A stretch of 64,000 nt of DNA from a virus, in the IMG/VR virus record IMGVR_UViG_3300031088_000737, positions 96,001-160,000 of that record. The stretch is one strand, 5' to 3'. A program made the position numbers and the translations under genes. Each line of letters starts with the position of its first letter. The first letter of the stretch is position 1. This document shows positions 5,644-63,169 of this stretch, one piece after another. The notes beneath the pieces are model-generated. The model was not told the origin of the DNA. It worked only from the letters and a program-made list of their open reading frames with translations, and made no database searches.

Positions 5644-6456
5644 ATGTCTTTTTATAATATAGCTCTTTCACTTTGTATTGGTGATGTTGAATTAGTCAGC
5701 ATACCTAGTCAATATTTAGAACCAATCAATTTTCCACACTCTCTTGAAGATATTAAAAATGTTGTGATAAATTTTGGTGACTCCTATGTAAAATGTGATA
5801 TAAAAATTGAATTTTCTTTTTTTAGTAATAATTTAAAAACCATTACTATTAATGGTAATGACATTTGTTATAAACGTTTATTTGAATTTTTGGATGAAAC
5901 GAATCCAACAGAACAAATATCAGTAGCTGGATTCGAAAGATTTCAACTTTCATTTTCATTAATGGCACAAATTGGTGGCGGATTTACTCGACGTATTCCT
6001 AACAAACCTGTTGTCCAGTCATATAAAAATGGAATTCTTGATGTTTTAGAATTTATGATGATTGATTATCATTATAATGTTACTGATTACTCGCAATTTA
6101 AACAGTGGCAAAAACCAACAACTTTATATTTCAATGAAGATGGGACAATTAAAGGACAATATTCCTATATTCGTTTCGAGAATCAAAGACGTAACAAGAA
6201 AATGGAAAAGATTCAAATTGATGAGTACATAAAAACAATGAATGCATTGATAGGTCAAAATCTTAAATTAAATTATCAAACATATGAATTTGAATTTGAA
6301 AACTACACATTAAATTTAGTCGATGAATTAATTATTGATATGTATTTTTATTTTGATGATTATAAAATAAATAAAGAAATAACATTTAACAATAGAGATT
6401 ATTTATTTCATTTAACACCTGATGAACGAATAGTATTGCAGATGCAAGTAATTTAA
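5644..6456 (+). CDS. Hypothetical protein, paralog of 6508-7317, M-x-x-I tail
   Basis: Shares FP...EDI..VVI with the next gene; ends LTPDERIVLQMQVI. Confidence 0.7.
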   Translation: MSFYNIALSLCIGDVELVSIPSQYLEPINFPHSLEDIKNVVINFGDSYVKCDIKIEFSFFSNNLKTITINGNDICYKRLFEFLDETNPTEQISVAGFERFQLSFSLMAQIGGGFTRRIPNKPVVQSYKNGILDVLEFMMIDYHYNVTDYSQFKQWQKPTTLYFNEDGTIKGQYSYIRFENQRRNKKMEKIQIDEYIKTMNALIGQNLKLNYQTYEFEFENYTLNLVDELIIDMYFYFDDYKINKEITFNNRDYLFHLTPDERIVLQMQVI

Positions 6457-6507
6457 TGATTGACATTATAATAATATAAACCTAACATAATAATAGGAGG
6501 TTTTATC

Positions 6508-7317
6508 ATGTCAAAGCATGTCGATATGTCATTTACTGCAGCTAATAAGGAAATATTAAGTGTATCTGGGGTTACTTTTGATAACACTTCCTTCCCATTT
6601 GTCTACGAAGACATTGAAAAAGTTGTTATTTTAGTTGATGATGACTTTGAAGAAACAAAAGTAGTTGGATTAAATATTTACTTATTGGTTGATCATGAAA
6701 CCAAACTCTTTAGATTTAATATCTTCGATAGCGATTTAACAACACTCTTTAAAACGATTGATAGTTCAGTAAAACCTCTGGTGATTGGCTTTGACCCTTA
6801 TTTTCAATTAATGAGCGTTAAATTTATACCAAAAGGTATCTATGGCTTATACAAGGATAATGTTAACAAACCTGTTAGAACTGTTTATGATGAATTAGGC
6901 ATAGTAAAAAACTTAACCTATCTGGATGTTGATCCTAATCAGTCGGATTTGAATTATTACAATGCATCTTGTCATACAACCCCTAAGTTTATTGCCTACA
7001 ATGAATTTGGTGAATTGGATGAAGACAATTCGTATTTCTCAATACATAGAAAGAACACCACTTTCATTGTGGCCACTTATAAAGACCACTTAGCTTTAAT
7101 AGAAAATATCACTAAGAAAAAGGCTTTTTTTAATTTGGAAGAACACAAAGTGATGATTGAAAATGAATTGCTTTCTGTTAATGACCTCATCTTATTAAGG
7201 CTCTATTATTCCTTTAATTATTACAAACTTAAATTTAATCTCGAATATCAATCGAAAGAAGATATTTTTAATTTTTCCGATAACGATAAAGCCTTAATTT
7301 CTATGTTATTGTTCTAA
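6508..7317 (+). CDS. Hypothetical protein, paralog of 5644-6456, M-x-x-F tail
   Basis: Own TTGACA promoter and AGGAGG SD; ends FSDNDKALISMLLF. Confidence 0.7.
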   Translation: MSKHVDMSFTAANKEILSVSGVTFDNTSFPFVYEDIEKVVILVDDDFEETKVVGLNIYLLVDHETKLFRFNIFDSDLTTLFKTIDSSVKPLVIGFDPYFQLMSVKFIPKGIYGLYKDNVNKPVRTVYDELGIVKNLTYLDVDPNQSDLNYYNASCHTTPKFIAYNEFGELDEDNSYFSIHRKNTTFIVATYKDHLALIENITKKKAFFNLEEHKVMIENELLSVNDLILLRLYYSFNYYKLKFNLEYQSKEDIFNFSDNDKALISMLLF

Positions 7318-7380
7318 CATATAGATTGACATTTAAATTAAATAAGATACTATTTATACACCAATTTAGGAGTATATATT

Positions 7381-7569
7381 ATGGCAATATCAGCAAGTTT
7401 AAAAGAAGCAATATTAGCAATACCAGATGATGGTTTTTGGAAATCAAGTGCAGAAGACAGTTTTCTTGATGCGGGTGCATTGTTGGCTGAAAAAGGTTTA
7501 GCCGAAGATGAAATTGTTGATTTGTTGAATGATTTGTATTATGCAGCAGCATCTTGCTATGGTGGTTAA
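7381..7569 (+). CDS. Small acidic hypothetical protein
   Basis: TTGACA promoter, SD AGGAG, followed by a bidirectional terminator. Confidence 0.7.
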   Translation: MAISASLKEAILAIPDDGFWKSSAEDSFLDAGALLAEKGLAEDEIVDLLNDLYYAAASCYGG

Positions 7570-7612
7570 CACTAACTAAATTGAATACTAAAAAACCGCT
7601 TTCTAGCGGTTT

Positions 7613-8407
7613 TTAAATAGTTCCCATTTCAATAATTTTCATGTAATCTATTTTTTCTTCAGTTGTTAGTTGTTTTAAATCAGCCATTGTCATTTTAAAA
7701 TTATTTTTTAGTAAGACATCCATATGTTCTTTTACTTTTGATTCATAATCATTTTTAAAGCCTAACAATTCTACTTCCTGATTACATTTGTTATCTTCAT
7801 GAATGTTTAAATATAGGTAATACCGTTTTTTAGCAGATACAGGGTAGGAAACTGTCAAAACAGGCTGTAGTTTGTTATTCTTAACTATGAATCTTAGTTC
7901 TATATTAATTGTACAAGCATAAACCATTTTTTTGTAATCTGGATCAAATTCAACTAAGGCATTTGAAAGCGTTACGACACCAGCCGTTTTGAATGAGCTG
8001 TTTTTTTCAATCAATTTACTTTTAAATTGTCCTTCTATCGAGCAGTCTTTTATTTCAATTTTTTTCACGAATCCATATCGTTCACCAATGATATTGAAAT
8101 CATTAAACATATTATTTAGATAAGTGTAGTCATAGTTTTTATTTCCAAATAACTGATCAATAGTTTCGTTTTCTACATATCTAAATTTCATCGAACAGTG
8201 ATAGTCATACGACATATTGGGAATCAATCGTTGAGGTTTAGCAAACACACAGGCTACGGTACTGGTATTGTATTTAACTGTTTCATCAATGCCTACAACT
8301 TCATAAATGGAATACTTGTCTTTTGGACACAAATACTTTTCAAAGGATGTATTATCAAACATCTCATGATAGGCTGCTAATACTACCTCTGCATTGATCA
8401 TAGACAC
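7613..8407 (-). CDS. Tandem paralog family A, member 6
   Basis: NYDY motif and QPVLTVSYP..HED motif; ends LTTEEKIDYMKIIEMGTI. Confidence 0.75.
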   Translation of the reverse strand: MSMINAEVVLAAYHEMFDNTSFEKYLCPKDKYSIYEVVGIDETVKYNTSTVACVFAKPQRLIPNMSYDYHCSMKFRYVENETIDQLFGNKNYDYTYLNNMFNDFNIIGERYGFVKKIEIKDCSIEGQFKSKLIEKNSSFKTAGVVTLSNALVEFDPDYKKMVYACTINIELRFIVKNNKLQPVLTVSYPVSAKKRYYLYLNIHEDNKCNQEVELLGFKNDYESKVKEHMDVLLKNNFKMTMADLKQLTTEEKIDYMKIIEMGTI

Positions 8408-8412
8408 TCCGA

Positions 8413-9258
8413 TTAAATCATGGACATTTCAGCAACTTTCAAATAATTCAATTTATCTTCAAAGGTTAATGTTGCTAAATATTTATTTTTTAGTTTTAAT
8501 TCTTTTCTTAAAATCATATCCACTCTTTCTTTTAATACGATATCTAACTTAGACATCGCTTTTTCGAGTTGTCGTTCATTAAACGCTTGTCCATCTGGAT
8601 GAATATCAACAGTAATGAACATTTTGTCACTGATAGAAATGGGGAATGTAATCTCTGCTAATGGATGAATAACACCGTTAGTGACAGCAAACTTATAGAC
8701 TATTGTAATTCTTCGGCTTCTTAATTTACCATTTCTGGTGTTGTTTTTAGTTTTGAAGAAGTCTGCAAAATTAACTTCTGATATCTTAGTCTCAGTGGGA
8801 ATAAGTTTTGTAGAAATTCCTTTAAATTGATAAGCTTTTTTAAAGTAATGATGAAGAGCGGGATCTTTAATGGTTTCCAATGATTCAAATAAAGCATGTT
8901 GTTGCCCCATTGCAAAGCAATCATTGATAACTTTATTGACAATTTCATAATTATAGTTCACTTGACTAAATAGAGAACTTACAAATTTTTTGTTGAGATT
9001 AGAAAACTGTAAATAAGTATAAAACTGATAATCTTCTTTTTCTTGTGGATACCCAGTGTTATAACTAAAAGCCATATATATTTCTTCATTTTCTTCATCA
9101 ATTTCTTTTTGCTTAACAGCTTTATTTCTTGATTTAATAACCCCAACGACACCCGTACTTGTACTAGAGTTTGCGTCGTAAAACGAAGGCTTATCAAAAG
9201 CGGTTCCCTCAAAAAGTTTTAAATAGGCGTCTAAGCAGGTTATTTGACTTTCATTCAT
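8413..9258 (-). CDS. Tandem paralog family A, member 5
   Basis: NYNYE and HPL..ITFP..HPD motifs; ends LTFEDKLNYLKVAEMSMI. Confidence 0.75.
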   Translation of the reverse strand: MNESQITCLDAYLKLFEGTAFDKPSFYDANSSTSTGVVGVIKSRNKAVKQKEIDEENEEIYMAFSYNTGYPQEKEDYQFYTYLQFSNLNKKFVSSLFSQVNYNYEIVNKVINDCFAMGQQHALFESLETIKDPALHHYFKKAYQFKGISTKLIPTETKISEVNFADFFKTKNNTRNGKLRSRRITIVYKFAVTNGVIHPLAEITFPISISDKMFITVDIHPDGQAFNERQLEKAMSKLDIVLKERVDMILRKELKLKNKYLATLTFEDKLNYLKVAEMSMI

Positions 9259-9288
9259 GTAAGGCTCCATAATTTAACAGTAACGGTA

Positions 9289-10107
9289 TCATATTTCCGA
9301 CATTTCTGCAATCGTTAAATAGTTGATTTTATCTTCTGTTGTTAACGTTGCTAATGTTTTATTAGTAAATTGTAATTCTTTTTTTAACACCTGATTGACT
9401 CTTTTAATCAATCTTTCTTCTAGTTCAGATGAGTATTTGATCAATCGTTCTTCAGCTTCTTGTTTCTGATCCGGGTGGATATCAAATGCGAGTTCTATAC
9501 TGGCATTGGGTGCTACAGGGTAATCAATCATTGCTATTGGATGAATTTCATTGTTTCTTAAAACAAAATGATAACATAAGGTCATATTTTTACCTTTTAA
9601 TTTTTTTGCACCTCTTTCTAGTTTATGCAGTTCAGTCTTATAGAAATTTGAAAACTGTATATTTGAAATATTTTTTGTGCTGGCAAATTGTGTGTTTTCG
9701 TAATGCGTCCACAAATATCTTGAAACTAACGTTTCTTCAATTTTAATATATTTAACTGGCTTTAAAGTTTTAAACAACTTATAGGTTTCACCTAGTGTGT
9801 ATAAATGTTTTATTGCTTTTTCAATGAATGCATAATTATATTGATGTGGCTTTAACAGTTCCCTCACTGTTTTTATGTTTATATTTTCGAAGCCAATGAC
9901 ACATTCTTTTTCATAATCCACACATTTATTTGGAAATCCAACCTTATCCTTAAATCTAAATATTACCTTAGATGAAGATTCTTTCATATCTACGATGAAT
10001 GCATGGTTGAAATAATGATTACTTTCACCTGTATTGATTTGATCGATGTCTTGATCTTTAAAAAAGTCTTTACAGACTTGAATAAGATTGTTTTGTTCTT
10101 CGCTCAT
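9289..10107 (-). CDS. Tandem paralog family A, member 4
   Basis: QYNYA and HPI..IDYP..HPD motifs; ends LTTEDKINYLTIAEMSEI. Confidence 0.75.
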   Translation of the reverse strand: MSEEQNNLIQVCKDFFKDQDIDQINTGESNHYFNHAFIVDMKESSSKVIFRFKDKVGFPNKCVDYEKECVIGFENINIKTVRELLKPHQYNYAFIEKAIKHLYTLGETYKLFKTLKPVKYIKIEETLVSRYLWTHYENTQFASTKNISNIQFSNFYKTELHKLERGAKKLKGKNMTLCYHFVLRNNEIHPIAMIDYPVAPNASIELAFDIHPDQKQEAEERLIKYSSELEERLIKRVNQVLKKELQFTNKTLATLTTEDKINYLTIAEMSEI

Positions 10108-10143: not shown

Positions 10144-10947
10144 TCAAATCGTGTTCATGTCTATGACAATGAGGTAATTTAATTTTTCTTCTAACGTCAT
10201 GGCCGCAATCTCTTCTTTTTTCATTTTAAGTTTTCTTTTCAAAACACTTTCAAAATGTTCTTCTAAGATCTTTGCAAAACGAATCTTTTCTTTTTCCAAA
10301 TGTTCTTTTTGAGCCACTTCTTGTGATGGGTGTAAATTTAGTTTTACCAAAAAATCATAAGATGAACTATAAGGCAACGATATACTGACAATCGGTTGAA
10401 TATCAAGACTCTCAGAAAGATAAAAGTTGTTATGAATTTTTGCCACTTTCTTTTTCAAGTTATCAGCAGACGATCTTTTGTCCGTCATCATGGGAGAAAA
10501 CGATATTTTTGTTAAATGTTTTTGTTCACTCTTGGCAACTTTTCTTACGGTTGTGTATAATTCTTCAAGTTTTGTGTGCTTTAATTCGGTAATTTCTTTG
10601 TAGAAACCAAACTTGTGACCAATTTTATAAAGAGATTGAACGGTATCATGAATAGCTTGATAATTATAGTTTTGGGCATTAAAAAAGTCTGTTAATATGT
10701 CTTCTTTTATGTCATTACCAATTATTTCACACATATATGGATATGATTGTCCATAAAACTTGGCTCTATTTGAACGGTAAAAGTTAAATTGTAAGCTAGT
10801 GCTGGTAGGTTCTCCTTTGCGTTTGTAGATACTTTTAATATTTGTCATTATAAAATCACCTTCTGTTTGAACAATTTCATTTTCAGAAGGCAATAAATTT
10901 TGGGTCATTTTATTAAAAGCATTTAAGTAAATTGTTAATTCATTCAT
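10144..10947 (-). CDS. Tandem paralog family A, member 3
   Basis: AQNYNYQ and QPIVSISLPY..HPS motifs; ends MTLEEKLNYLIVIDMNTI. Start chosen by the SD GAGG. Confidence 0.75.
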   Translation of the reverse strand: MNELTIYLNAFNKMTQNLLPSENEIVQTEGDFIMTNIKSIYKRKGEPTSTSLQFNFYRSNRAKFYGQSYPYMCEIIGNDIKEDILTDFFNAQNYNYQAIHDTVQSLYKIGHKFGFYKEITELKHTKLEELYTTVRKVAKSEQKHLTKISFSPMMTDKRSSADNLKKKVAKIHNNFYLSESLDIQPIVSISLPYSSSYDFLVKLNLHPSQEVAQKEHLEKEKIRFAKILEEHFESVLKRKLKMKKEEIAAMTLEEKLNYLIVIDMNTI

Positions 10948-11001
10948 TTTACAAACCTCTTTCGTGAGGTCTATTATATCAAAAAAAAGAACTTTAATCA
11001 A

Positions 11002-11790
11002 CTAAATTGAATTCATTTCAAGTATCGGAATGTAATTTAATTTTTCTTCTAATGTTAATCGAAAAATTTCATCTCTGGTTAACTTCATTCGTTTGTTTAA
11101 TAAGAAATCTAAATGATCTTCTAACAATTTTTTAAAATCATTAATTTGCAATTCTAAATTTTCTAATTGACTTTCTTTTTGAGATGGATGTAAATAAATT
11201 TTCACCATGAAACTAGATGATGAGCAATAAGGAATTGTTAAATAAAGAATAGGATGTATCTCGTTATCATCACTTACAAAAAATTCAACACGATGACTGG
11301 CAACCTTATTGAGTGGTTTGCCATCATTTCTAGGCTTTAAAAAACTAGCTAAATTTAATTTGCTTACATTTTTTACAGTAATTCGTGGTTCATCAAAGCC
11401 ATAGTCAAAGCTATCATGTAGTTTAATATTTTTTATTTCTTGCATATTGTTAAAGAAACTAAATGATTGACCTACTTTAAAGCAATCGACCATTGCTTTT
11501 TCAACTAATTCGTAATTGTAGTTTTGAGCTTCAAAAATGTCTTTTAATAGTTCATAAGGCACATCTCTTGTTCGTATCTGACAATGAGTGTCGTAACTTT
11601 CTTGACTAGTCTTCTTGTCAGGATAAAAGCTAACATTTATATAGTAGTTAAATTTTGATTTGTCTTCTGGTTCATTGACACTGACAAATTCATGTTGAAC
11701 CCCATGTTGTCGATAAATGACACGATTTTCTGGTGTTTGTTTGACTATTAATTTATTAAAAGCTTCTTTGTACCTATCTTCTTTGTTCAT
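11002..11790 (-). CDS. Tandem paralog family A, member 2
   Basis: AQNYNYE and HPILYLTIPY..HPS motifs; ends LTLEEKLNYIPILEMNSI. Confidence 0.75.
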   Translation of the reverse strand: MNKEDRYKEAFNKLIVKQTPENRVIYRQHGVQHEFVSVNEPEDKSKFNYYINVSFYPDKKTSQESYDTHCQIRTRDVPYELLKDIFEAQNYNYELVEKAMVDCFKVGQSFSFFNNMQEIKNIKLHDSFDYGFDEPRITVKNVSKLNLASFLKPRNDGKPLNKVASHRVEFFVSDDNEIHPILYLTIPYCSSSSFMVKIYLHPSQKESQLENLELQINDFKKLLEDHLDFLLNKRMKLTRDEIFRLTLEEKLNYIPILEMNSI

Positions 11791-11813: not shown

Positions 11814-12623
11814 TTAAAATTTTACCATTTCTACTAACGGTAGATAACTCATTTTTTCTTCTAAGGTTAATTTCAGTATATCTGCTTTTTTGAGTTTGAG
11901 CGATTTATTTAAAAGGATGTCGATATGTTCAGTGAGTAATACTTTGAAATCATTTAGTATTGAAGGTATCGTATTAATCATTTCTTCTTTTTTTGATGGA
12001 TGTAAATTGATTGAAACCATCATATATTTGTTCATTGTATAAGGTATAGATAAACTCAATACCGGGTGAAGTCTATTATCTTCTGACAATTTAAATTCAA
12101 GACGATAAACAAGTGTTTTTTTCTTTTCATTACCATTGGGTGTTTTTGTAGCAATAACAGTTGAAAGCGATATCTTTGTTGCCGTTTTTATTGATTCTGA
12201 TATGTAATAGAACCCGTGGCTATAACTGTCACTTATTTTAAAATCATGAACAGGTGTGAATGTCGTAAAAAATTTAAATTCTTGGCCTATTTTTATCAAG
12301 TTCATTAACACTTGTTGAACTAATTCATAATTGTAAGTATTGTTACTGAATATTTTAGTTATGTCCTCACTTGGCATATTTTGAAGCTGAAATTTACAAG
12401 AAGTATCATAATACGTTTCACCGACTTTCTCTAATTTAGCATGCTGAGTAAATACGCATGAAATCGCTTTACGATCAGGTAAGTTGTCATTTTTGACAAG
12501 ATGTATCAAACTATCAGAGTTATCCATAGAATTCTCAATCCTTGTATAAACAGGATTTATCATTTTTCCTAAGAAATGATGAAAAGCTTTTTTGTATCTT
12601 TTTTCTTTATCAAAATGTATCAT
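11814..12623 (-). CDS. Tandem paralog family A, member 1
   Basis: TYNYE and HPVLSLSIPY..HPS motifs; ends LTLEEKMSYLPLVEMVKF. Confidence 0.75.
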   Translation of the reverse strand: MIHFDKEKRYKKAFHHFLGKMINPVYTRIENSMDNSDSLIHLVKNDNLPDRKAISCVFTQHAKLEKVGETYYDTSCKFQLQNMPSEDITKIFSNNTYNYELVQQVLMNLIKIGQEFKFFTTFTPVHDFKISDSYSHGFYYISESIKTATKISLSTVIATKTPNGNEKKKTLVYRLEFKLSEDNRLHPVLSLSIPYTMNKYMMVSINLHPSKKEEMINTIPSILNDFKVLLTEHIDILLNKSLKLKKADILKLTLEEKMSYLPLVEMVKF

Positions 12624-12634
12624 TTAATAGTACC

Positions 12635-13198
12635 TTAAATTTTAACCATGTGAAAAAGTGCTAATTCTTCTTTTGTATATTTATTCAGTGGTTTTTCCAA
12701 AAAACCTTGCAACCTTTGAGAATAAAACTGTTCATGTACGGCATCTATTGTTTTATCTATTTTAGAAAGCATGCTGGGAGCAAACTGAAATTGAAAGGAT
12801 GCAGCAACTGTAGACACTTTTATTGTTGGGATAGCATATAATTTTTTAGAACGTTTATTGTAATAGAAATAAGTTTCCTTCAAATAAAAAACAACTTTTC
12901 TTTTATTTTCTATAATATTTTCATATTTGTCGATAAGATCTCTATTTTCATCGTAAGCTGCTAAAATAGCATCGTAAATCGATTTGTCAGCCGCTTCAAA
13001 AATCTTACGGTATTCATCACTCTCATGATCTCGACTAACGTACATGGTATTTCCATCATTAACCTTGGCAAAAAGTTTATGAGTACCAATATCAGTAGAT
13101 GGAAGACTTATTTCAAAATCTGTTTTGTTATTATAACTCACTTTTATTTTCGATTCATCTAACTCTAAAATATCAGTAATTTTTTCTACCAACGTCAT
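12635..13198 (-). CDS. Hypothetical protein with M-x-x-I tail
   Basis: SD AGGAG before the ATG at 13198; ends YTKEELALFHMVKI. Confidence 0.7.
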   Translation of the reverse strand: MTLVEKITDILELDESKIKVSYNNKTDFEISLPSTDIGTHKLFAKVNDGNTMYVSRDHESDEYRKIFEAADKSIYDAILAAYDENRDLIDKYENIIENKRKVVFYLKETYFYYNKRSKKLYAIPTIKVSTVAASFQFQFAPSMLSKIDKTIDAVHEQFYSQRLQGFLEKPLNKYTKEELALFHMVKI

Positions 13199-13451
13199 AA
13201 TTTTTCTCCTACATAATTTCAGGATTATACATGAACATAACATTTTTTGCAATGTTTTATTGACTTCACCGTGTTTTTTGCTTATAATTGAGATGTGCTT
13301 TATTGAGAGCGTGCTAAATAGGCGAGATGGCGAAACCGAACTGGTATCAATGATTATGTTTTCATTAATCAAACAACCCAACTTAATTGATCCTTAAAAT
13401 AAGTTGATTCCTATTTGTCGAATTATAACACTATTTTAATGGAGAATAATT

Positions 13452-15132: not shown

Positions 15133-15270
15133 TTCACTACTCTCCTAGTTATTTCCCTATAATATCATAGTATTTAAAGAAAATAAAGCCTTTTAAGATC
15201 AAAATTATAAAAAAATAAGTTGCCTAAATTTTGTTCATGATTTATACTTCAGTTGATATGATTGGAGAGT

Positions 15271-16008
15271 ATGAAAAAAATGAATGTTAAATCATTAGTG
15301 CCTGCTTTTTACTTTAAGAATTACCATTCTTTTGTATTGCTCAATTCTATTATTTTTTTAATTTTATCAATTCCTTTCCCAACAGTTGATGATTGGTCAT
15401 TAAATGGAATGAGATATCTTTTAGACTATCCTATCATGTTCTTTCTAACACTGTTGGTTGTATCAAATATTGCACTGTATTCTAAAAGTTTTATATCTAA
15501 ATCTTATCCATCCATACAAGACAGCATGTCCGATTTTTTTAATGTTTATTGTGTCTATGTTGCCATTATTTTAAAAGTTATGTTTCAACTTGGATGTATT
15601 TCTTATTACCTTTATGAAAAAAACATGACAACATTTCCATCAGCAAAATGGATGTTGGGAACGATGGCTTTATTTTATTTCTTATCACTCCTGAGTATTG
15701 GGCATTTTGTCTTTCATTCAGTTAAAGGCACTTATAAAAGGTACAAAACACCAGCCCACAAGAACCACTGGATTATGGAATATCTCAATCCTAAGCAACT
15801 TCGAAAATTAAAAAACATTTCTAGCAATGGAAAAATCGTTTCTATTTATTTTAATGGATTTCTTCTAAATGAAGCTGATAACAGTGTTGTGATTAGACAA
15901 TATAAGCTCAAACTGAATGCATTTCGAGACTATATTACACTTAACAATTTAAAATTAGATGATTTGAATGATGACGAACTTAAAGTCATTGAAATGCTAG
16001 GTATATAA
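15271..16008 (+). CDS. Four-TM membrane protein, family B, EMLGI tail
   Basis: Hydrophobic helices followed by a soluble domain; ends LNDDELKVIEMLGI. Confidence 0.75.
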   Translation: MKKMNVKSLVPAFYFKNYHSFVLLNSIIFLILSIPFPTVDDWSLNGMRYLLDYPIMFFLTLLVVSNIALYSKSFISKSYPSIQDSMSDFFNVYCVYVAIILKVMFQLGCISYYLYEKNMTTFPSAKWMLGTMALFYFLSLLSIGHFVFHSVKGTYKRYKTPAHKNHWIMEYLNPKQLRKLKNISSNGKIVSIYFNGFLLNEADNSVVIRQYKLKLNAFRDYITLNNLKLDDLNDDELKVIEMLGI

Positions 16009-16024: not shown

Positions 16025-16735
16025 ATGAGAGTTCAACTGGTTTTACCCACTATTTATATTTACAATTATCATGCTCTCAATATTGTAGCCTGTCTTTTGT
16101 TTCTTGGTCTGCAAGCGATTGTTGGCGATGATTATTTTGAAACGGTTTCATTTATTCAGCCGATTATTAAATATTCTCTAGTATTGTTACTGATTTTAAA
16201 CATTGTATTATTGATCAAGTCAATCCTTGTTAAAACGTATACCAGCCTTAATGAAAGTCAAAAGGATATCTATCAAATCATGAGTTTCATCATCATGATT
16301 TCATTTAAAGTGTGTATTATGGTATTAGTATTCTTTATGTGGCTTGGTGTCTTTGAAAAAGATTACATGAATATCACTGTTCATATTATTATAGGGTGTT
16401 TCTTTTTTATTTATTGTCTTTCATTTTTACTATTTTTATATTTTAGTATGATAGGTATTAAAAATAGAATAAATCATGTTAAAGTAAAAAATCATTGGAC
16501 TTTTGAGTTCATGAGTGAAAAACAAATAAGAAACGTTAAAACCTATCAAGAAGAAGGTAAGGTTATAGGTATTTATTTTAAAGGATTTCTGGTTAATGAA
16601 AAAGATAATGAGCTGACGCTCAATGGTAAGCCGCTTAATCTCAACTCATTCAAATTTTACATGAACAATAAAAAGTGCAAAATTGACGATTTAACCGATG
16701 AAGATATAGCCATTATCGAGATGTTAGGAATCTAA
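16025..16735 (+). CDS. Four-TM membrane protein, family B, EMLGI tail
   Basis: Paralog of the previous gene (NHW..E.....Q.R, IYF.GFL.NE.DN); ends LTDEDIAIIEMLGI. Confidence 0.75.
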   Translation: MRVQLVLPTIYIYNYHALNIVACLLFLGLQAIVGDDYFETVSFIQPIIKYSLVLLLILNIVLLIKSILVKTYTSLNESQKDIYQIMSFIIMISFKVCIMVLVFFMWLGVFEKDYMNITVHIIIGCFFFIYCLSFLLFLYFSMIGIKNRINHVKVKNHWTFEFMSEKQIRNVKTYQEEGKVIGIYFKGFLVNEKDNELTLNGKPLNLNSFKFYMNNKKCKIDDLTDEDIAIIEMLGI

Positions 16736-49472: not shown

Positions 49473-49474
49473 AT

Positions 49475-51639: not shown

Positions 51640-51845
51640 GTGAAATCTCCTAATTATTAAGCAATAAATGGCGTTTATGTGTAATAGATAATCTTCCAAA
51701 TAATGGATGTAAAGTGATTACTATTGTAGTTATGCTTTCGTCATTTATTAGCGTGATATAATTAGTTACATGAGATTTCTCCATTAAATTTGTGAATATT
51801 CTACTATCTTAAAGCATTTTTTAATAAATATCAAGTTAAATTTTA

Positions 51846-52874
51846 CTAAAAATTCAACATAGCTACCAAATCAAAAAACGCTTGTGGGTTATCTTCTAAT
51901 TCATCCAGTTCCATTTCTATTTCATATTTTTCAAAATACTTTTTAAACTGATAATGGAAAATAATTTTTTTGAAGAATTCTTTTGAGTAAGTTTTCTTTA
52001 AACGAAGATAGCCATGTGGTGTCATTGAAATTGCATAATAAGCCGGATTGTTTAAAAAATCAAACTTACGAATCTCAACGGTAAAGTGTTTATAGCCACT
52101 GGATGTAATGTAACGTTGATTAAATCGTTTTGACGTAATATTACCCGCCTTATCCTTAACGTCTTTGTCATAGGATTCGGATTGTTGTAACCTTACTTCA
52201 AGTTTTAAATTAGGTATAAGTTCGCCATTTTTTCCTATTTTAAACTCTTCTTTTTGAGAAATTTCTAAAATAAAGTTGATCGAGTTCTTAATAAAGTAAT
52301 TAAGCACTTTACTATTTTTGCGTGGTGGTGACAACTCGACTTCACCGTATTGAGCAAAAACTTCCAAGATTTCTTTAATACAATGCTCAGCAATAGGTTT
52401 AATTTGTTCAGCAAATATTTTTCTATGCTCTTCCGTCTTATTGTGTTTATATTTGGTCATGTAATCCAATGTGATATTGTAATTATATTCTGGTATTAAG
52501 TCCGATTTATAGGTAGTCTTGAAGACATCTTTGGCTAATAGAATATTAGGACTTGATTCTAATTGTTCTCTAAACCCATAAATTTTAGAAGTCGGAAACT
52601 TACTATGATTTTTGTTGATAGCAAATGTATAGCTCATGTATTCTATTTTACTTTCGGCTGGCGTCGGATTGAATGTCAACGCATTTTTATTTGCTGATGT
52701 GATATACACCATGTTTTCCAAAATTTGAATGGAGGCTTTGGGAATAAGAAAGTCACGGTTCTTATCATTCTCATAAAGACTTTGGAAGATGTTTTGAACA
52801 TTTACACCTACAGATGAATTCTTCCAGTCCATTGGCATTTGTTTACTTAATTTTTCAAATTCAATAAAATACAT
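51846..52874 (-). CDS. Hypothetical protein with M-x-x-F tail
   Basis: Ends AFFDLVAMLNF. Confidence 0.7.
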   Translation of the reverse strand: MYFIEFEKLSKQMPMDWKNSSVGVNVQNIFQSLYENDKNRDFLIPKASIQILENMVYITSANKNALTFNPTPAESKIEYMSYTFAINKNHSKFPTSKIYGFREQLESSPNILLAKDVFKTTYKSDLIPEYNYNITLDYMTKYKHNKTEEHRKIFAEQIKPIAEHCIKEILEVFAQYGEVELSPPRKNSKVLNYFIKNSINFILEISQKEEFKIGKNGELIPNLKLEVRLQQSESYDKDVKDKAGNITSKRFNQRYITSSGYKHFTVEIRKFDFLNNPAYYAISMTPHGYLRLKKTYSKEFFKKIIFHYQFKKYFEKYEIEMELDELEDNPQAFFDLVAMLNF

Positions 52875-52876
52875 AA

Positions 52877-53599
52877 TTAAAATCTCCACATATCATATAT
52901 CGTTTTGTAACTGTCGAAGTTAGTTTCAAAATCTTTAAAACTTACGGTGTTTCCAATGTTTTTTGTCATTCTTTTATGCAATCTTTGTAGTATACATTTT
53001 GTCAATAGGTCATCTTGTTGCCTTGGACTTTCAATAAACTTTAAATCAGTCAAGAACTGAGCAAATTCTAGTCCTTTCACATCACTCAAAATAAAAGTCA
53101 TTTTGGCATTGTAGACAAAAAGTTCAACCCACAAAAACTCAATCACCACATCCAGTTTTACATGATAAAACATTTGAGAACGAGTAAAATTTTTATACAT
53201 TTTTGTTTTACCATCAAAATCAAAAGGCATATGCATCACACTGACCGTAAAACAACTGTTCTCGGATAAACCCCTTCGTTTAAATTCTCGTTCAAATTTT
53301 TCTGGTTGAATACAACCGAATTCTACCAGTTTATTGAAATACGTTGTTCGAATAGCTCTATTCATTTCAGTTTTATCTTTCAATCTGATGAAGTGTTTAT
53401 TGTCGAGCTTTTTCAAGGCTACCATTTGAGCAGGAGTGATTTCTAATCGAATCAAGTCATTTTCATTAGGCAGTTTACCATTAAACGAAGGAGTTGCTAT
53501 TTTGATTCCGTTAGTTTGATCATTATTGTTGTTCACATATAATCCACCTTCACTTCTACGGAAGGGAAATTGTTCAGACAACAAAATAAATCTTTTCAC
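52877..53599 (-). CDS. Hypothetical protein with M-x-x-F tail
   Basis: GTG start with SD AGGAG; ends SYKTIYDMWRF. Confidence 0.7.
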   Translation of the reverse strand: MKRFILLSEQFPFRRSEGGLYVNNNNDQTNGIKIATPSFNGKLPNENDLIRLEITPAQMVALKKLDNKHFIRLKDKTEMNRAIRTTYFNKLVEFGCIQPEKFEREFKRRGLSENSCFTVSVMHMPFDFDGKTKMYKNFTRSQMFYHVKLDVVIEFLWVELFVYNAKMTFILSDVKGLEFAQFLTDLKFIESPRQQDDLLTKCILQRLHKRMTKNIGNTVSFKDFETNFDSYKTIYDMWRF

Positions 53600-56878: not shown

Positions 56879-57667
56879 TTATTTTAAGATATTATTAAGA
56901 ATTTTGTATCTTTCATCCAAATCTTTTATAGACTCTTTCTTATCAACTACGGTGACAGGTTTAGGTTCCGTAATTTTACTGTAATTCTCTTCAATATCTT
57001 TTGTAGTTACTTTAAGGATTATCGTAGCAATCACATTGGTCGCGTTAATGTTTTGTTCTATGAGAACATATTTTCGGCTATCAAGATTAACATATCCTTT
57101 ATTAAAAAATTCTTTATTGTAATGTTTATCACCTAAAAAATTATTATATCGTGATTCCAAATAATCCAGTTCTTGTTTGACTTGACCATACGTGTCATCA
57201 AATTTGTATTGACTGAGTATTAGTCGGCTGCTTAGCACATAACCATCTATCAAATCATATTCCGTGATGAATTTATTATCAGTCATATCTTCGGCAATTC
57301 TTAACGTTTGATGTTCAAGTCCTTTTAAATTAATGGTTACTAATTTGCCGTTATCCATCTCCACCACTTTATTTATATGATCTTTTAAATCGTAGTTAGC
57401 TCTGGATGAACCCACTCTCTTTGTATTGATAGGAGGAAAATTTTCTTTACCTGCTGTTGTAGGAACGGTATCAAATAAGGTTAAGTTTAAGTAGGATGTT
57501 TTTGGGATAAAAACATCAACACTGTCTTTGGCACCAACAGCCTTTTCCATCTCGCTAAATATGGTTGGGAAACTTTCTATTGTTTTTTTTGTTTCTGTCT
57601 TAGTGTCATCGGCATAAGCCGTTAATGAACACACAGCAAACAACGTTAATAATGTAGTTTTTAACAT
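56879..57667 (-). CDS. Secreted protein, paralog of 57678-58343
   Basis: Signal peptide ending AYA; VTINL....QTL.I motif; ends YKILNNILK. Confidence 0.65.
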   Translation of the reverse strand: MLKTTLLTLFAVCSLTAYADDTKTETKKTIESFPTIFSEMEKAVGAKDSVDVFIPKTSYLNLTLFDTVPTTAGKENFPPINTKRVGSSRANYDLKDHINKVVEMDNGKLVTINLKGLEHQTLRIAEDMTDNKFITEYDLIDGYVLSSRLILSQYKFDDTYGQVKQELDYLESRYNNFLGDKHYNKEFFNKGYVNLDSRKYVLIEQNINATNVIATIILKVTTKDIEENYSKITEPKPVTVVDKKESIKDLDERYKILNNILK

Positions 57668-57677
57668 GGTCTTTCTC

Positions 57678-58343
57678 CTATTTTAAAATGGTATCGAGTA
57701 TTTTGTATTGTTTATCAATGTTTTTTTCTTTCATGCTATTTATTATCTTGTCATAGTTTTTATATGTATCTTTTTCAAGTATTGATAAATTTAAAAAGCA
57801 ACATTTACCTTTAAGTATAACCGATATCTGTGCAATGTTTTTATCATTTTTGCATTTAGTCGAATAGAAATGATATTTATAGCCAAGATCAATTAAAGCA
57901 TTTTTACATTTCTTAGCTATATGTTTATTTTCTTCATATAACTCCATAATGCTTTTTTCGTTTTTATAGCTAAGTGTTAACATTTGTATATTGATTACAT
58001 AACCATAGCCAACCGTGTATTCAAATACAAATGGATTCTTTGGATTATAGTCGTCACCGACTTGGATTGTTTGATATTTTATGTTTTCAAGATTAATTGT
58101 TACTGTAATAGATGTTTCATTTTTACTTATGTTTACAATATGTTCCTTAACATTTTTATAATCTATTGATGAGCCAAGATTGTTTACAAACTGATTCTCA
58201 GTAATTCGGTAAAGATCGCCCTCTTCTTTTTGGAAAATATAATAGAGTTTACTTGTTTGGGGAATTACTATTGTTAGTTCCTTTTGCTTACCAACTTGCG
58301 TTCCTAATTGACTTAGAATTGGTGGAAAATCGTTGACTGACAT
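57678..58343 (-). CDS. Paralog of 56879-57667 without a signal peptide
   Basis: VTINL....QTI.V motif; ends YKILDTILK. Confidence 0.65.
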   Translation of the reverse strand: MSVNDFPPILSQLGTQVGKQKELTIVIPQTSKLYYIFQKEEGDLYRITENQFVNNLGSSIDYKNVKEHIVNISKNETSITVTINLENIKYQTIQVGDDYNPKNPFVFEYTVGYGYVINIQMLTLSYKNEKSIMELYEENKHIAKKCKNALIDLGYKYHFYSTKCKNDKNIAQISVILKGKCCFLNLSILEKDTYKNYDKIINSMKEKNIDKQYKILDTILK

Positions 58344-58457
58344 GTTATATCTCCTGAATTCCTGTAATAGTAACATTAAATAAATAATAATCAAACAAAA
58401 AATATAGATAATCTAATAGCATTATGATATAATAAGTCAAATTTAAGGACTTGTATT

Positions 58458-60101: not shown

Positions 60102-60179
60102 GGGGGCACATGTTCCAAGGGATGGCGAGTTTGCCTTGCACGCAGACTGCGAAGAGTTCGATTCTCTTTGTCTCCACCA
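60102..60179 (+). tRNA. tRNA-Ala(TGC)
   Basis: G3:U70, loop CT-TGC-AC, TTCGA T-loop and encoded CCA. Confidence 0.85.
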
Positions 60180-60220
60180 AATTTGTTGACTTGATGTGTT
60201 ATAGAACAAACTTAAAATAT

Positions 60221-60295
60221 GGGCTGTTAGTTTAACTGGGAAAATACCTGCCTTGCACGCAGATGTTCAGAGTTCGATTCTCTGACGGTCCACCA
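60221..60295 (+). tRNA. tRNA-Ala(TGC)
   Basis: GGGCTGT/ACGGTCC acceptor with G3:U70; CCA. Confidence 0.88.
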
Positions 60296-60319
60296 GATTA
60301 GTTGTAGAAAGAGAATTAT

Positions 60320-60396
60320 GTCTGCGTAGCTCAGTTGGATAGAGCATCCGCCTTCTAAGCGGATGGTCGTTGGTTCGAATCCAACCGTAGACACCA
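60320..60396 (+). tRNA. tRNA-Arg(TCT)
   Basis: TCCGC-CTTCTAA-GCGGA anticodon arm; CCA. Confidence 0.92.
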
Positions 60397-60416
60397 AATT
60401 AGATGTAACCAGATAT

Positions 60417-60491
60417 GGGCTGATAGTTTAACTGGGAAAACACTTGCCTTGCACGCAGGAGTTCAGAGTTCGATTCTCTGTCGGTCCACCA
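60417..60491 (+). tRNA. tRNA-Ala(TGC)
   Basis: Near copy of 60221-60295; G3:U70; CCA. Confidence 0.88.
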
Positions 60492-60508
60492 GATTTAAGT
60501 AATACAAT

Positions 60509-60583
60509 GGGGCTTTTAGTTTAACTGGCAAAACCTTGGGATTTCTCCTAAAGAATATGGTTCGAGTCCATATAGCTCCACCA
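60509..60583 (+). ncRNA. tRNA-Ala-like RNA with aberrant 6-nt anticodon loop
   Basis: GGGGCT/AGCTCC-ACCA acceptor (G3:U70), normal D and T arms; the arm reads TTGGG-ATTTCT-CCTAA. Confidence 0.7.
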
Positions 60584-60598
60584 GTTTATAAGTTTCAT

Positions 60599-60675
60599 GG
60601 GCCATTAGTTCAGTTGGTAGAACGCCTGCTTTGCACGCAGGATGTCATGAGTTCAAATCTCATATGTGTCCACCA
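60599..60675 (+). tRNA. tRNA-Ala(TGC) with one bulged base in the acceptor stem
   Basis: CCTGC-TTTGCAC-GCAGG; the 3' acceptor strand ATGTGTCC is 8 nt long. Confidence 0.8.
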
Positions 60676-60692
60676 GTTTTAAAATTTTATAC

Positions 60693-60766
60693 GGGGTTTT
60701 AGTTTAACTATCGAAAAACAACAAGGAAACTTGTAAATGAAAGGTCGAAACTTTCAGACTCCACCA
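60693..60766 (+). ncRNA. tRNA-Ala-like RNA with GAAA tetraloop in place of the anticodon loop
   Basis: GGGGTTT/AGACTCC-ACCA (G3:U70) and ACAAG-GAAA-CTTGT. The D-loop lacks GG and the T-loop is GTCGAAA. Confidence 0.72.
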
Positions 60767-60781
60767 AATAATGTTTTTTAT

Positions 60782-60857
60782 ATTCTCATAGCTCAACTGG
60801 AAGAGCAATGACCTTCTAAGTCATCGGTTGTAGGTTCGAGTCCTACTGGGAATGCCA
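60782..60857 (+). tRNA. tRNA-Arg(TCT)
   Basis: ATGAC-CTTCTAA-GTCAT; ends GCCA. Confidence 0.9.
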
Positions 60858-60863
60858 AATTAG

Positions 60864-61040
60864 TTAGTTGATGTTTCAACTGATTTAAACGCTACATGTT
60901 GCCTGATTAGCAACTAGTATACTGGTCAAGTATGATTGAAGCAGCTTAATCACTGCAGTCTGACCTCTGATAAGTATATCCGGTAGGTATTTACCGTCAC
61001 TTCGAAGCGTGGAGATATTTATTATCGTTGAAGCGTTAGC
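60864..61040 (+). ncRNA. Unassigned multi-stem structured RNA candidate within the tRNA operon
   Basis: Several nested inverted repeats, closed by AACGCT/AGCGTT; no credible ORF. Confidence 0.45.
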
Positions 61041-61054
61041 GGAAATACTATTAT

Positions 61055-61129
61055 GGGCTGTTAGTTTAGCTGGGAAAATACCTGCCTTGCACGCAGGAGT
61101 GCTGGGTTCGAGTCCCTGACGGTCCACCA
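61055..61129 (+). tRNA. tRNA-Ala(TGC)
   Basis: G3:U70; CCTGC-CTTGCAC-GCAGG; one T-stem mismatch; CCA. Confidence 0.85.
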
Positions 61130-61141
61130 GTTTTGTTGTTT

Positions 61142-61218
61142 GTCCGTGTAGCTCAGTTGGATAGAGCGTCTGCCTCCTAAGCGGAAGGTCGTAGGTTCAA
61201 ATCCTATCACGGACGCCA
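61142..61218 (+). tRNA. tRNA-Arg(CCT)
   Basis: TCTGC-CTCCTAA-GCGGA; ends GCCA. Confidence 0.9.
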
Positions 61219-61248
61219 GTTTTGATATTTTATTTAGAGGATTAATCA

Positions 61249-61782
61249 ATGGTAATTGCTTATGTGGCACCTTTGTTAAAAGATGATTATATTAACGCAA
61301 CCGCTGATAATAAAACTATTAAAGAAAGTCATGATATTCGTGAAAAAATTGTAGCTCGCTCTCTTTATGTATTTGATAAAATTGCTGAGTTGTTGAATTT
61401 AAAATATAATTGGGTTGCTTTTGATACTATTGATTTAGAAAAATATCAAGGTGCCGATAACGGAGAATATGATTATCAGCGTTATTTTGAAACGTTTAAA
61501 TTTTATAGTGATATTGACGAATTAGAATATAAAAATAAAATTATTGATGTTTATTGTAATCAATTTCCATCAAGTTTTATTTATGAAGAATTTGAAGATG
61601 AAGTTCTTGGAACGGCTGAATCAATTAAGCTAGGTATTGATTTAAAAAAAGAAAGAGCAGATAGAAAACGAAAACATGATAAGGATAAAGAAAAAGAACG
61701 CAATAAGATTAGACCAGAAGTAATAGCTTCTATTAAATCTAAATTGAGTGAATTAGAATTATCTTTTGTTGATTTTAAATGA
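61249..61782 (+). CDS. Hypothetical protein embedded in the tRNA cluster
   Basis: SD GAGG; acidic body with a basic coiled tail. Confidence 0.7.
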   Translation: MVIAYVAPLLKDDYINATADNKTIKESHDIREKIVARSLYVFDKIAELLNLKYNWVAFDTIDLEKYQGADNGEYDYQRYFETFKFYSDIDELEYKNKIIDVYCNQFPSSFIYEEFEDEVLGTAESIKLGIDLKKERADRKRKHDKDKEKERNKIRPEVIASIKSKLSELELSFVDFK

Positions 61783-61863
61783 TTTAACAAAGAATAAGGG
61801 AGTTTTACTGTAAAGGTGAAACTGGATTGGAGCCGTGGTTTCCGGGGGGCATTCATTCACTAT

Positions 61864-61940
61864 GGGATTTTAGCTCAGTTGGTTAGAGCATCCGACTCAT
61901 AATCGGCAGGTCGTAAGTTCAAGTCTTACAAGTCCCACCA
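61864..61940 (+). tRNA. tRNA with CAT anticodon, probably Ile2 (lysidine)
   Basis: CCGA-CTCATAA-TCGG arm with C29:G41, resembling ileX-type tRNAs. Met is not excluded. Confidence 0.8.
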
Positions 61941-61956
61941 AATTAGATGTGTATAT

Positions 61957-62031
61957 GGTTCTGTAGCATAACGGTAAATGCACCCCGCTCATAACGGGAT
62001 GATTAAGGTTCGATTCCTTGCAGAACCACCA
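61957..62031 (+). tRNA. tRNA with CAT anticodon (elongator Met or Ile2)
   Basis: CCCG-CTCATAA-CGGG; G1:C72 is paired, so it is not initiator-like; CCA. Confidence 0.8.
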
Positions 62032-62034
62032 GAT

Positions 62035-62163
62035 AGTAGAAAGGTAGCTTAACGGGAGAGCAGCCGGGATGACCCGGTAACTTTAAATCTCATGTCAGAT
62101 AAATTCTCGTAATTTATAGGCCATGTGGATAGTGGTAATGGTTCGAATCCATTGCTTTCTACT
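62035..62163 (+). ncRNA. tRNA-like RNA with no anticodon loop and a 58-nt variable arm
   Basis: AGTAGAAAG/CTTTCTACT closing stem, D arm GCTT..GAGC, GCCGGG-ATGA-CCCGGT and T arm AATGG-TTCGAAT-CCATT. No encoded CCA. Confidence 0.62.
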
Positions 62164-62171
62164 TGCATTTT

Positions 62172-62247
62172 GGGGTTGTAGTTCAGTTGGTAGAACGCTT
62201 GTATGGCATACAAGAGGTCGTGGGTTCGAATCCCATCTTCTCCACCA
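62172..62247 (+). tRNA. tRNA-Ala(GGC) with two acceptor-stem mismatches
   Basis: CTTGT-ATGGCAT-ACAAG; G3:U70; U5/U68 and U6/U67 are unpaired; CCA. Confidence 0.78.
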
Positions 62248-62252
62248 AATAT

Positions 62253-62280
62253 AAAGAGAACTTTCGAGTTCTCTTTTTTA
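62253..62280 (+). terminator. Terminator ending the tRNA operon
   Basis: AAGAGAAC-TTTCGA-GTTCTCTT followed by a T-run. Confidence 0.8.
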
Positions 62281-62338
62281 TTGCTTGATTTTTGAATTTA
62301 TGTTATAATCAATCATTATTTTATTATGAGGAATTATT

Positions 62339-63169
62339 GTGATTAAAAGTTCATTAAAAGATATCAATAAATCATTAAAAACACATTACAAAAGCCCTTT
62401 TAAAGTATCTAATTATAAAGAAGAACTTGAAGGAGAAATAGTCGATTTTGTTGTTATTGAAGATATTAATAAGCGAACACTCGCTCGCTTTCAATACCTA
62501 AAAGAAGATGGTGCTATTATCTCTGGTTACAATGACTCTCCATTATATAAATCAGAACGCGAACAATATTTTCCAGCATATTATGATCAACAACACTTGG
62601 ATATCTATCAAAAAGTATTCGATTTGTTTTATGATAATCCTATTGTAAAAGAATATGTTCAAAAATATTCGCTTGGCACCGTTAATAAAAATATGTTTGA
62701 TATTAGCGATGATCATAGACGTGGCGTCTCATTAATCAAATGTTTCTATTTTTTAGGCAACAGCAGTCGTTCTGATAGTTCTATTGGGCTTCAATATTAT
62801 ATCAATGAACATGGTAAAATCACACCACGAATGAAAATTAAGTTTTCATTCATGACCTGTGGCAGTCTTACTATCTATTATGATTACTCATCTAATAGCT
62901 TTCATTTTGGCAAAGCCAGTTTTAATGAATCCAATAAACTTGTTAAACTTGATGATGAAAAGACGACTGAATTATTTAATATTAAGTCTGGTGAGGTATT
63001 CATTGATGATGAGCATTTAAATCTAATCTTCACTCGTTGGATGTTGGAAATGGGATATCGGTTAAACAAACAAGCTTTTGTCGCTTACAAGATGGATGAA
63101 TTCATTGAACTTGCTGACACAGCAAAAGTGATTGAACATCTAAGTTTGATAAAAATGGCACTTATTTAA
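62339..63169 (+). CDS. Hypothetical protein, family D, M-x-x-I tail
   Basis: GTG start with SD GAGGA; ends EHLSLIKMALI. Confidence 0.7.
   Translation: MIKSSLKDINKSLKTHYKSPFKVSNYKEELEGEIVDFVVIEDINKRTLARFQYLKEDGAIISGYNDSPLYKSEREQYFPAYYDQQHLDIYQKVFDLFYDNPIVKEYVQKYSLGTVNKNMFDISDDHRRGVSLIKCFYFLGNSSRSDSSIGLQYYINEHGKITPRMKIKFSFMTCGSLTIYYDYSSNSFHFGKASFNESNKLVKLDDEKTTELFNIKSGEVFIDDEHLNLIFTRWMLEMGYRLNKQAFVAYKMDEFIELADTAKVIEHLSLIKMALI

Follow-up and report, generated by a model that had tools for sequence, protein, structure and literature searches.

What gives proteins with dissimilar bodies, encoded on one DNA molecule, the same few residues at their C-termini? The question arises from bases 96001–160000 of IMGVR_UViG_3300031088_000737, a 181,270-bp record that IMG/VR files as a provirus fragment; we refer to this stretch of 64,000 nucleotides as the window. 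An original prediction, made from the letters of the window, listed sixteen proteins ending in Met-x-x-hydrophobic and proposed that they share a docking, sorting or degradation tag. Open reading frame (ORF) listing and translation of the window returned all sixteen termini exactly as written, and a seventeenth carrier starts at 63196, leaves the window and ends KMTLI in the genome. Counts given across the record refer to the whole 181 kb and its 225 non-overlapping ORFs, and the family inventory of the record is limited to ORFs of at least 100 amino acids (aa). As set out below, the tail looks like an undescribed address or docking label on mostly unrelated orphan proteins.

The pattern M-x-x-[IFVL]-COOH ends 39 of the 225 ORFs, against 1.76 expected from amino-acid composition (binomial P = 1.4e-39). 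Moved inward by 1–11 residues, it occurs 0–4 times, and among shadow ORFs it is found in 3 of 223. Near variants bring the total to about 46; these include the endings MCHT, MSKY, MYEY and MLIE and one case with an additional residue (AEMYLIS). Met at −4 is strongly preferred, not absolute: two seemingly tail-less paralogs end DILLI and DIVLF, with Ile in its place, and Ile also stands at −4 in two orthologs of the family of the gene at 42695. A profile built from the last 35 residues recognises all carriers, each at its exact C-terminus, and has no other convincing match.

In a set of 29 sequences, one for each family, information content stands above the small-sample baseline at positions −15 to −1 only, where the consensus is [ED]-x-[TFIY]-[DKQE]-[DSE]-[YH]-[LF]-x-[LVI]-[LIA]-[EKDN]-M-h-x-[IFVY]-COOH (h, hydrophobic residue). 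Acidic residues are placed at −15, −12/−11 and −5, aromatic or hydrophobic ones at −13, −10/−9, −7, −6, −3 and −1, and Met at −4. Glu or Asp makes up 52% of residues at −15, 34% at −12 and 48% at −11, so that the segment is acidic without a clear EExxE block; the net charge of the last 20 residues is −1.7 in carriers versus +0.8 in other proteins, and the tip is hydrophobic. What is conserved is an acidic-hydrophobic helix of 15 residues at the very end, and about one protein in five of the element ends in it. From −45 to −16 there is almost no cross-family signal (leave-one-out area under the curve, AUC, 0.63), which speaks against a longer conserved C-terminal domain.

The carriers in the window are listed here with coordinates, strand and ending. 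F1 to F5 denote carrier families, TM stands for transmembrane, and L002 is a stretch of a 1.84-Mb metagenome contig (ENA ERZ27281805, k141_522346) that is syntenic with the window.

5632–6456, + strand: F2 carrier ending QMQVI; paralog of the gene at 6508, with L002 and L004 orthologs that retain the tail.
6508–7317, + strand: F2 carrier ending SMLLF; its L002 ortholog ends SMLLFQ.
7613–8407, − strand: F1 carrier ending EMGTI; one of six tandem F1 paralogs.
8413–9270, − strand: F1 carrier ending EMSMI; alpha/beta body in the predicted model, with the tail helix at residues 270–284.
9289–10107, − strand: F1 carrier ending EMSEI.
10144–11001, − strand: F1 carrier ending DMNTI.
11002–11790, − strand: F1 carrier ending EMNSI.
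11814–12623, − strand: F1 carrier ending EMVKF.
12635–13381, − strand: F3 carrier ending HMVKI; its longest ORF has 248 aa versus 191–198 aa in orthologs, and the true start is probably downstream of 13381.
15262–16008, + strand: F4 carrier with four TM segments, ending EMLGI; C-terminal domain and tail predicted to be cytoplasmic.
16025–16735, + strand: F4 carrier with four TM segments, ending EMLGI.
42695–43354, − strand: F5 carrier ending EMINI; in the predicted model a C-terminal bundle of three helices has the tail as its third.
50887–51699, − strand: singleton carrier ending KMYMV; an ortholog on a 1.92-Mb contig retains the tail.
51846–52889, − strand: singleton carrier ending AMLNF.
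52877–53599, − strand: singleton carrier ending DMWRF.
62339–63169, + strand: carrier ending KMALI; paralog of the gene at 63196.
63196–64000, + strand: seventeenth carrier, ending KMTLI; it leaves the window, and its end in the genome is equivalent to window position 64137.

Several smaller features of these arrays can be recorded. For the F1 gene at 8413–9270 (−), the longest-ORF start is probably too far upstream, homologs beginning at its residue 5. Near-consensus TTGACA/TATAAT boxes follow directly after carrier stop codons (window 6457–6507, 7318–7360 and many others), so that most array genes would seem to be driven individually, each from a strong sigma-70 promoter. Other tandem paralogs have end patterns of their own. 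Four of them lacking the Met tail, at window 47121–50065 (+), end in F-I-[EN]-x-x-[LIF]-[IV]-x-[ND]-[LFM]-[KN] plus 0–3 residues, a pattern also present in their orthologs on the 1.92-Mb contig, and two at window 56879–58394 (−) end YKILNNILK and YKILDTILK, another family-specific C-terminal helix.

Is the shared ending a property of the DNA or of the protein? The hydrophobic tail positions are written with many codons, synonymous and non-synonymous; all three stop codons are used after the tail, and there is no conservation beyond the stop. Because codons vary and nothing is conserved past the stop, selection acts on the peptide and not on a repeat, a terminator or a recombination site. A DNA repeat or mobile 3′ cassette is ruled out on the same grounds.

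A peptide under selection could still have been inherited by one family of full-length homologs, and we compared the carrier bodies in several ways. BLASTP divided the carriers into about ten small families and 17 singletons, and phmmer, run on bodies minus the last 22 residues, into 8 small families and 24 singletons. HHalign comparison of five family profiles, to which orthologs from two further lineages contributed, gave less than 1% probability with tails trimmed; when the tails were left on, the tails alone aligned. Weak body-profile matches were not enriched in carriers (14 of 75 versus 43 of 183 in the proteome). One body profile did join two BLAST singletons, the F5 carrier at 42695–43354 and a carrier at genome 64363–65361. 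Most carriers are 200–290 aa long, and four are membrane proteins with four TM segments, the remainder being soluble. All four comparisons being negative, a single family by simple descent is not supported, and since full-length homology of all carriers was not found, we regard the tail as modular. The original prediction had described the bodies, soluble and four-TM alike, as without visible similarity to each other, and had named full-length homology of all sixteen as a finding that would count against it; on both points the comparisons came out on its side.

The bodies are also almost devoid of annotation. Pfam, NCBIfam and PADLOC gave no match to any of the 43 carriers, and a PHROG matches a single one. 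By comparison, about 49 of the 140 other ORFs of at least 100 aa have a Pfam family (49 being an estimate from family tallies; Fisher P = 2e-7), in agreement with the earlier remark that no recognisable enzyme bears the tail. The PHROG match lies in a 492-aa carrier at genome 165353–166831 (+), equivalent to L012 7353–8828, whose residues 105–256 match phrog_21276. This region is 44–56% identical to hypothetical proteins of Stenotrophomonas, Xanthomonas and Pseudomonas jumbo phages, and the matches end well before the C-terminal region of the carrier. The protein links the gene pool of the element to jumbo phages of these three genera.

How the tail behaves as the bodies diverge can be followed in syntenic relatives. 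The median identity to L002 orthologs is 42% for carrier bodies versus 84% for neighbouring non-carriers (Mann–Whitney P = 4e-4), and within the carriers the last 17 residues are 66% identical to L002 and the bodies 49%. The tail is kept in 11 of 11 L002 orthologs, one of them with a single added Gln, and in 4 of 4 orthologous carriers on the 1.92-Mb contig, which comes from the Joint Genome Institute (JGI 3300034157, Ga0370506_000001). Searched against 1.84 billion cluster representatives, the F1 profile found only 36 proteins; down to E = 1e-3, all of these relatives that reach their C-terminus end in the tail, and no F1 relative was found in GTDB species genomes or IMG/VR. As a set, the carriers thus diversify rapidly while their end stays constant.

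The tail profile is lineage-specific, with 37 matches in the 181 kb of the record and none in five complete huge phages (385–524 kb), in five bacterial genomes including a Legionella, or in 401 genomes of the family of an Erwinia genome. A scan of this genome and of other jumbo phages had been proposed along with the original prediction; its first half was productive, with the 37 matches, and its second half, in the five huge phages, was empty. What survives of the predicted docking, sorting or degradation tag is a modular C-terminal tag, as seen in unrelated bodies, protein-level conservation and retention in every ortholog; the specific partners named for it are unsupported. Two carriers with one extra residue after the tail, at genome 163920–164711 (−), ending AEMYLIS, and at L002 11935–12762 (−), ending SMLLFQ, are natural tests of the importance of the free carboxylate position.

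Structure prediction suggests what form the tail takes. The AlphaFold model of F1 (predicted local distance difference test score, pLDDT, 80.8; predicted template modelling score, pTM, 0.81) is a two-part alpha/beta protein with helices at residues 228–256, 262–267 and 270–284 at pLDDT 86–93. The last of these is the tail helix, in which pLDDT is 86 as far as residue 280 and 58 over the final five residues. A Foldseek search of the PDB with this model was empty, VIA-align gave a best Z of 5.9 and no convincing PDB match, and the ESM Atlas gave no usable match. In the F5 model (pLDDT 72), residues 152–219 form a three-helix bundle whose third helix is the tail, with a tail pLDDT of about 70, and VIA-align matches are to generic three-helix bundles only (Z 6–8). 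On these models the tail would be the structured terminal helix of a C-terminal helical unit and not a floppy peptide, its E-M-x-x-I tip being the least certain part, and the word "tag" may overstate how free it is. Both models follow a similar order of elements (N-terminal helix, sheet, two helices, second sheet, C-terminal helices), which may point to a very deep common ancestry of some families.

The models also suit a different account, in which the tail is an intramolecular cap without a partner, spread by descent from a very old, unrecognisable family or by 3′ exon-like recombination. The tail helix sits within a helical unit in both predictions, the similar order of elements hints at a shared architecture, the family profile joined two BLAST singletons, and the prevailing length of 200–290 aa would fit as well. 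Yet packing in cis leaves unexplained why the chain ends exactly three residues past Met and why the same tail occurs on four-TM proteins. With almost no cross-family signal upstream of −16 (AUC 0.63) and body profile–profile comparison below 1% probability, we think a cap quite unlikely.

Location narrows what could read the tail. No carrier has a signal peptide, and 39 of 43 have no hydrophobic N-terminal segment; in the four-TM carriers the positive-inside rule places the N-terminus and the C-terminal domain with its tail in the cytoplasm. From the lack of signal peptides and the cytoplasmic tail of the four-TM carriers it follows that a reader must be cytoplasmic or a one-step export machine. 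One common reader probably exists, given the fixed distance to the free carboxylate, the protein-level selection, the unrelated fast-evolving bodies and the cytoplasmic location.

Which reader is plausible depends on what kind of element this is. Shine-Dalgarno motifs peak at −8 to −14 and TTGACT/TATAAT boxes stand upstream of genes, so expression is bacterial. A eukaryotic giant virus, which we weighed for the gene content (aminoacyl-tRNA synthetases, PTH2, UvdE, Fpg, DUF4116), is ruled out by these same signals. Relatives of the record are on contigs of 450 kb, 1.84 Mb and 1.92 Mb; GC content is 29–36% in 4-kb windows, and about 73% of ORFs of at least 100 aa have no Pfam family. Translation and RNA genes comprise three aminoacyl-tRNA synthetases, RtcB, an Rnl1-phosphoesterase fusion, PTH2 and a tRNA array. 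Metabolism and proteolysis are represented by ClpA, GAPDH and asparagine synthase, and repair by UvdE, Fpg and MGMT; OmpA-like proteins, a PilS-type pilin, a protein kinase, a NIF phosphatase, a LepB_N domain, Sir2 and HipA_C are also encoded. Metagenomes from phyllosphere, soil, wastewater, surfaces and food production contain DNA of the element, as do small runs labelled with organism names; complete E. coli genomes and PLSDB plasmids, as far as their records were accessible, gave no match. The element looks like an AT-rich, plasmid-like fragment of a megabase-scale bacterial element rather than a phage.

Among described elements, it is probably akin to the pMEGA megaplasmids of Enterobacteriaceae (Guitor et al.), a likeness drawn from their description. 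pMEGA are circular plasmids of 1.3–1.58 Mb with a GC content of 25.7–29.6%, in which about 80% of the genes are hypothetical and for which 438 conserved subfamilies are listed; they have as many as 208 tRNAs, set in arrays, and tandem arrays of paralogs, encode shufflon-like pilins, ClpP and a ClpA-like protein, and were detected in cassava phyllosphere samples (bioRxiv 10.1101/2025.09.30.679422). The record and its relatives share with them AT-richness, mostly hypothetical genes, large tRNA arrays, tandem paralog arrays and megabase size, as well as a shufflon-type pilin, a ClpA-like protein, a nucleoside deoxyribosyltransferase and presence in plant, gut and isolate samples. They differ in that the relatives on the 1.84- and 1.92-Mb contigs exceed the largest pMEGA (1.58 Mb). 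The preprint contains no occurrence of "C-terminal" or "C-terminus" and does not describe the tail (bioRxiv 10.1101/2025.09.30.679422); literature searches likewise turned up no description of it.

The plasmid-like character bears directly on the proposal that the tail serves capsid packaging or a phage scaffold, as the original prediction had suggested. In its broader form, the tail would be a jumbo-phage capsid-packaging or compartment-loading peptide, or an encapsulin or microcompartment cargo signal, and precedents exist in that short C-terminal helices serve as cargo peptides for encapsulins and, in some cases, as encapsulation peptides for microcompartments. The provirus label in IMG/VR would agree with a phage role, as would the central domain that one carrier has in common with Xanthomonas, Stenotrophomonas and Pseudomonas jumbo phages. 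The Pfam inventory of the 181 kb nevertheless holds no terminase, capsid, portal or tail family, and no encapsulin or microcompartment (BMC) shell family appears in this portion of the larger element. Relatives reside on 1.84- and 1.92-Mb contigs, a size that to our knowledge exceeds any known phage; membrane proteins bear the tail, and the five complete huge phages have no such tails. The absence of phage structural genes from a megabase plasmid-like element makes capsid packaging or a scaffold unlikely, and the cargo reading as a whole highly improbable.

An export machine is the reader that we favour. A modular recognition helix of about 15 residues, held by selection at the exact C-terminus of unrelated fast-evolving orphan proteins, would be recognised within the carrier cell, in its cytoplasm, by a single partner common to the carriers. 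This partner would be the coupling complex (DotL/DotM/IcmW-like) of a Dot/Icm-type, I-type conjugative secretion system, and the tail would mark the proteins of an effector or establishment repertoire for export into recipient or target cells. That the reader is a type IVB coupling complex, and the tail a translocation signal for a Dot/Icm-type machine, is a possibility that we advance tentatively and by analogy. We favour it because such signals are C-terminal and acidic, because the effector sets are large, orphan and fast-evolving and include membrane proteins, and because such a machine is reported on look-alike plasmids.

The analogy can be followed feature by feature. In Legionella and Coxiella, Dot/Icm (type IVB) effector signals occupy the last 20–35 residues, are uncleaved and are read in the cytoplasm. 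They are C-terminal, with a Glu-rich E-block bound and read by DotM and helical motifs read by IcmSW-LvgA (PMC9302130). Here we find an uncleaved motif at −15 to −1, cytoplasmic and without a Sec signal, which resembles those signals in its C-terminal position and in being acidic with hydrophobic residues near the end. The carriers resemble Dot/Icm effectors in being many fast-evolving orphans, often in paralog arrays, that take up a large share of the proteome and include membrane-spanning members; among the exports of the Legionella type IVB system are likewise membrane-inserted effectors (PMC11602083). Related I-type conjugation machinery is reported on the similar pMEGA plasmids: pMEGA4 encodes a Dot/Icm-type system with DotM/IcmP-, IcmW-, DotB-, DotD- and DotI-like proteins and a coupling protein (bioRxiv 10.1101/2025.09.30.679422).

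Several observations weigh against a Dot/Icm-type reader. No secretion-system gene appears in the Pfam inventory of the 181-kb record, and the type IVB link draws on the pMEGA preprint, that is, on elements likened to the record by description. Proteins with effector-like or eukaryote-like domains (protein kinase, NIF phosphatase, LepB_N, DUF4116, Sir2) do not have the tail. Dot/Icm signals are loose and largely unstructured, whereas the tail is a sharp, near-invariant helix with Met at −4 and a chain end at a fixed distance from it, and the tail profile finds nothing in a Legionella genome. The packing of the tail helix with the preceding helices in both AlphaFold models (pLDDT 86 and about 70) would fit a structural cap equally well. 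A hydrophobic C-terminus, moreover, is also a classical mark of AAA+ protease substrates.

This last point leads to a reading in which an AAA+ protease uses the tail as a tether or degron: the tail would either dock variable adaptors on Clp or FtsH, as in SspB with its ClpX-binding tail, or mark the carriers for rapid turnover. Nonpolar C-termini are classical determinants for ClpXP, ClpAP, FtsH and Tsp, and the motif is strictly C-terminal with a hydrophobic tip. The tail is cytoplasmic and also present on membrane proteins, which FtsH can handle, and variable, fast-evolving bodies on a constant handle would fit a family of adaptors. The record encodes its own ClpA, and pMEGA4 is reported with ClpP, ClpA- and ClpB-like proteins and three FtsH-like proteins (bioRxiv 10.1101/2025.09.30.679422). 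That ClpA, which the original prediction had put forward as a tail reader, is encoded at window 25545–27842 (−); it is full-length and canonical throughout, including an ordinary N-domain, and 40–43% identical to ClpA of many Proteobacteria, the relatives found in public collections all being at or below 46% identity. It shows no feature that connects it to the tail, and the suggestion is not upheld.

Other properties of the tail also sit poorly with a protease. A conserved 15-residue amphipathic helix far exceeds known degron needs, destroying a fifth of the proteome would be costly, and no adaptor-like fold was recognised in the carrier models. The tail resembles the ssrA tag and the ClpX-binding tail of SspB in that these are short, lie at the very C-terminus, contain hydrophobic residues and are read in the cytoplasm, on soluble and membrane proteins alike. 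They differ from it in being shorter and non-helical, and ssrA is added by tmRNA and not gene-encoded; we know of no determinant of this type that is common to a fifth of a proteome. We therefore judge a protease tether or degron unlikely.

The tail could also dock on some other hub, a protein of the element or of the host, with variable heads on a constant handle as in the poxvirus ankyrin-PRANC/F-box proteins. Modularity, selection and fast evolution of the bodies apply equally here; the constant spacing to the free carboxylate points to an end-reading pocket, and the motif is lineage-specific. Poxvirus ankyrin-PRANC/F-box and XVIPCD modules, the latter of Xanthomonas type IV effectors, dock variable bodies onto one machine, and they share with the tail the arrangement of a constant C-terminal element on variable, fast-evolving bodies. 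They are, however, folded domains of 40–120 residues with recognisable profiles, whereas only about 15 residues are conserved here. No candidate for such a hub emerged, the Pfam inventory of the 181 kb having no PDZ, TPR or known end-reading domain. Its only protease-like match among the proteins of the element is Trypsin_2 without PDZ, and no PDZ family is present that would make the tail a PDZ-type ligand. We consider docking on another hub doubtful. A type I secretion signal, whose substrates are soluble and often have RTX repeats, is not supported: the same inventory holds no ABC transporter, membrane fusion protein or TolC family, no carrier contains a Pfam repeat, and four carriers are polytopic membrane proteins.

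Returning to the Dot/Icm-type reader, its consequence at the scale of the whole element can be put as a conjecture: giant enterobacterial megaplasmids might mark a fifth of their proteins with a C-terminal helix, and a Dot/Icm-like machine might inject hundreds of them into recipients or targets, ahead of or alongside long DNA transfer. If this were true, the 15-residue profile could give the complete effector repertoire directly from sequence. Short C-terminal signals that direct unrelated proteins to one machine are known, and they are usually fuzzy and hard to predict. The tail is crisp enough that every carrier can be listed from sequence alone, and it covers about 20% of the genes of a type of element that has recently come to light in E. 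coli, Salmonella and other Enterobacteriaceae and in which few genes have a known function. A reader, once found, would give hundreds of orphan proteins a shared fate in a single step, would show how huge plasmids affect their hosts or neighbours, and would make the tail a portable 15-residue experimental tag.

The remainder of the window contains further features of note. A 12-gene tRNA array at window 60104–62247 comprises Ala-UGC (five copies), Arg-UCU (two), Arg-CCU, Met-CAU (two), Ala-GGC and one tRNA-like gene, at 60509–60583, which has a two-base anticodon according to ARAGORN. A search of IMG/VR with the RNA ligase of the element returned no relatives. Three gene fusions are also encoded: a metallophosphoesterase fused to a T4-type RNA ligase 1 at window 40–2259 (+), an MFS transporter fused to an acyltransferase (LplT-Aas-like) at 21679–23547 (+), and a cytidylyltransferase-like domain fused to dephospho-CoA kinase at 36239–37384 (−).

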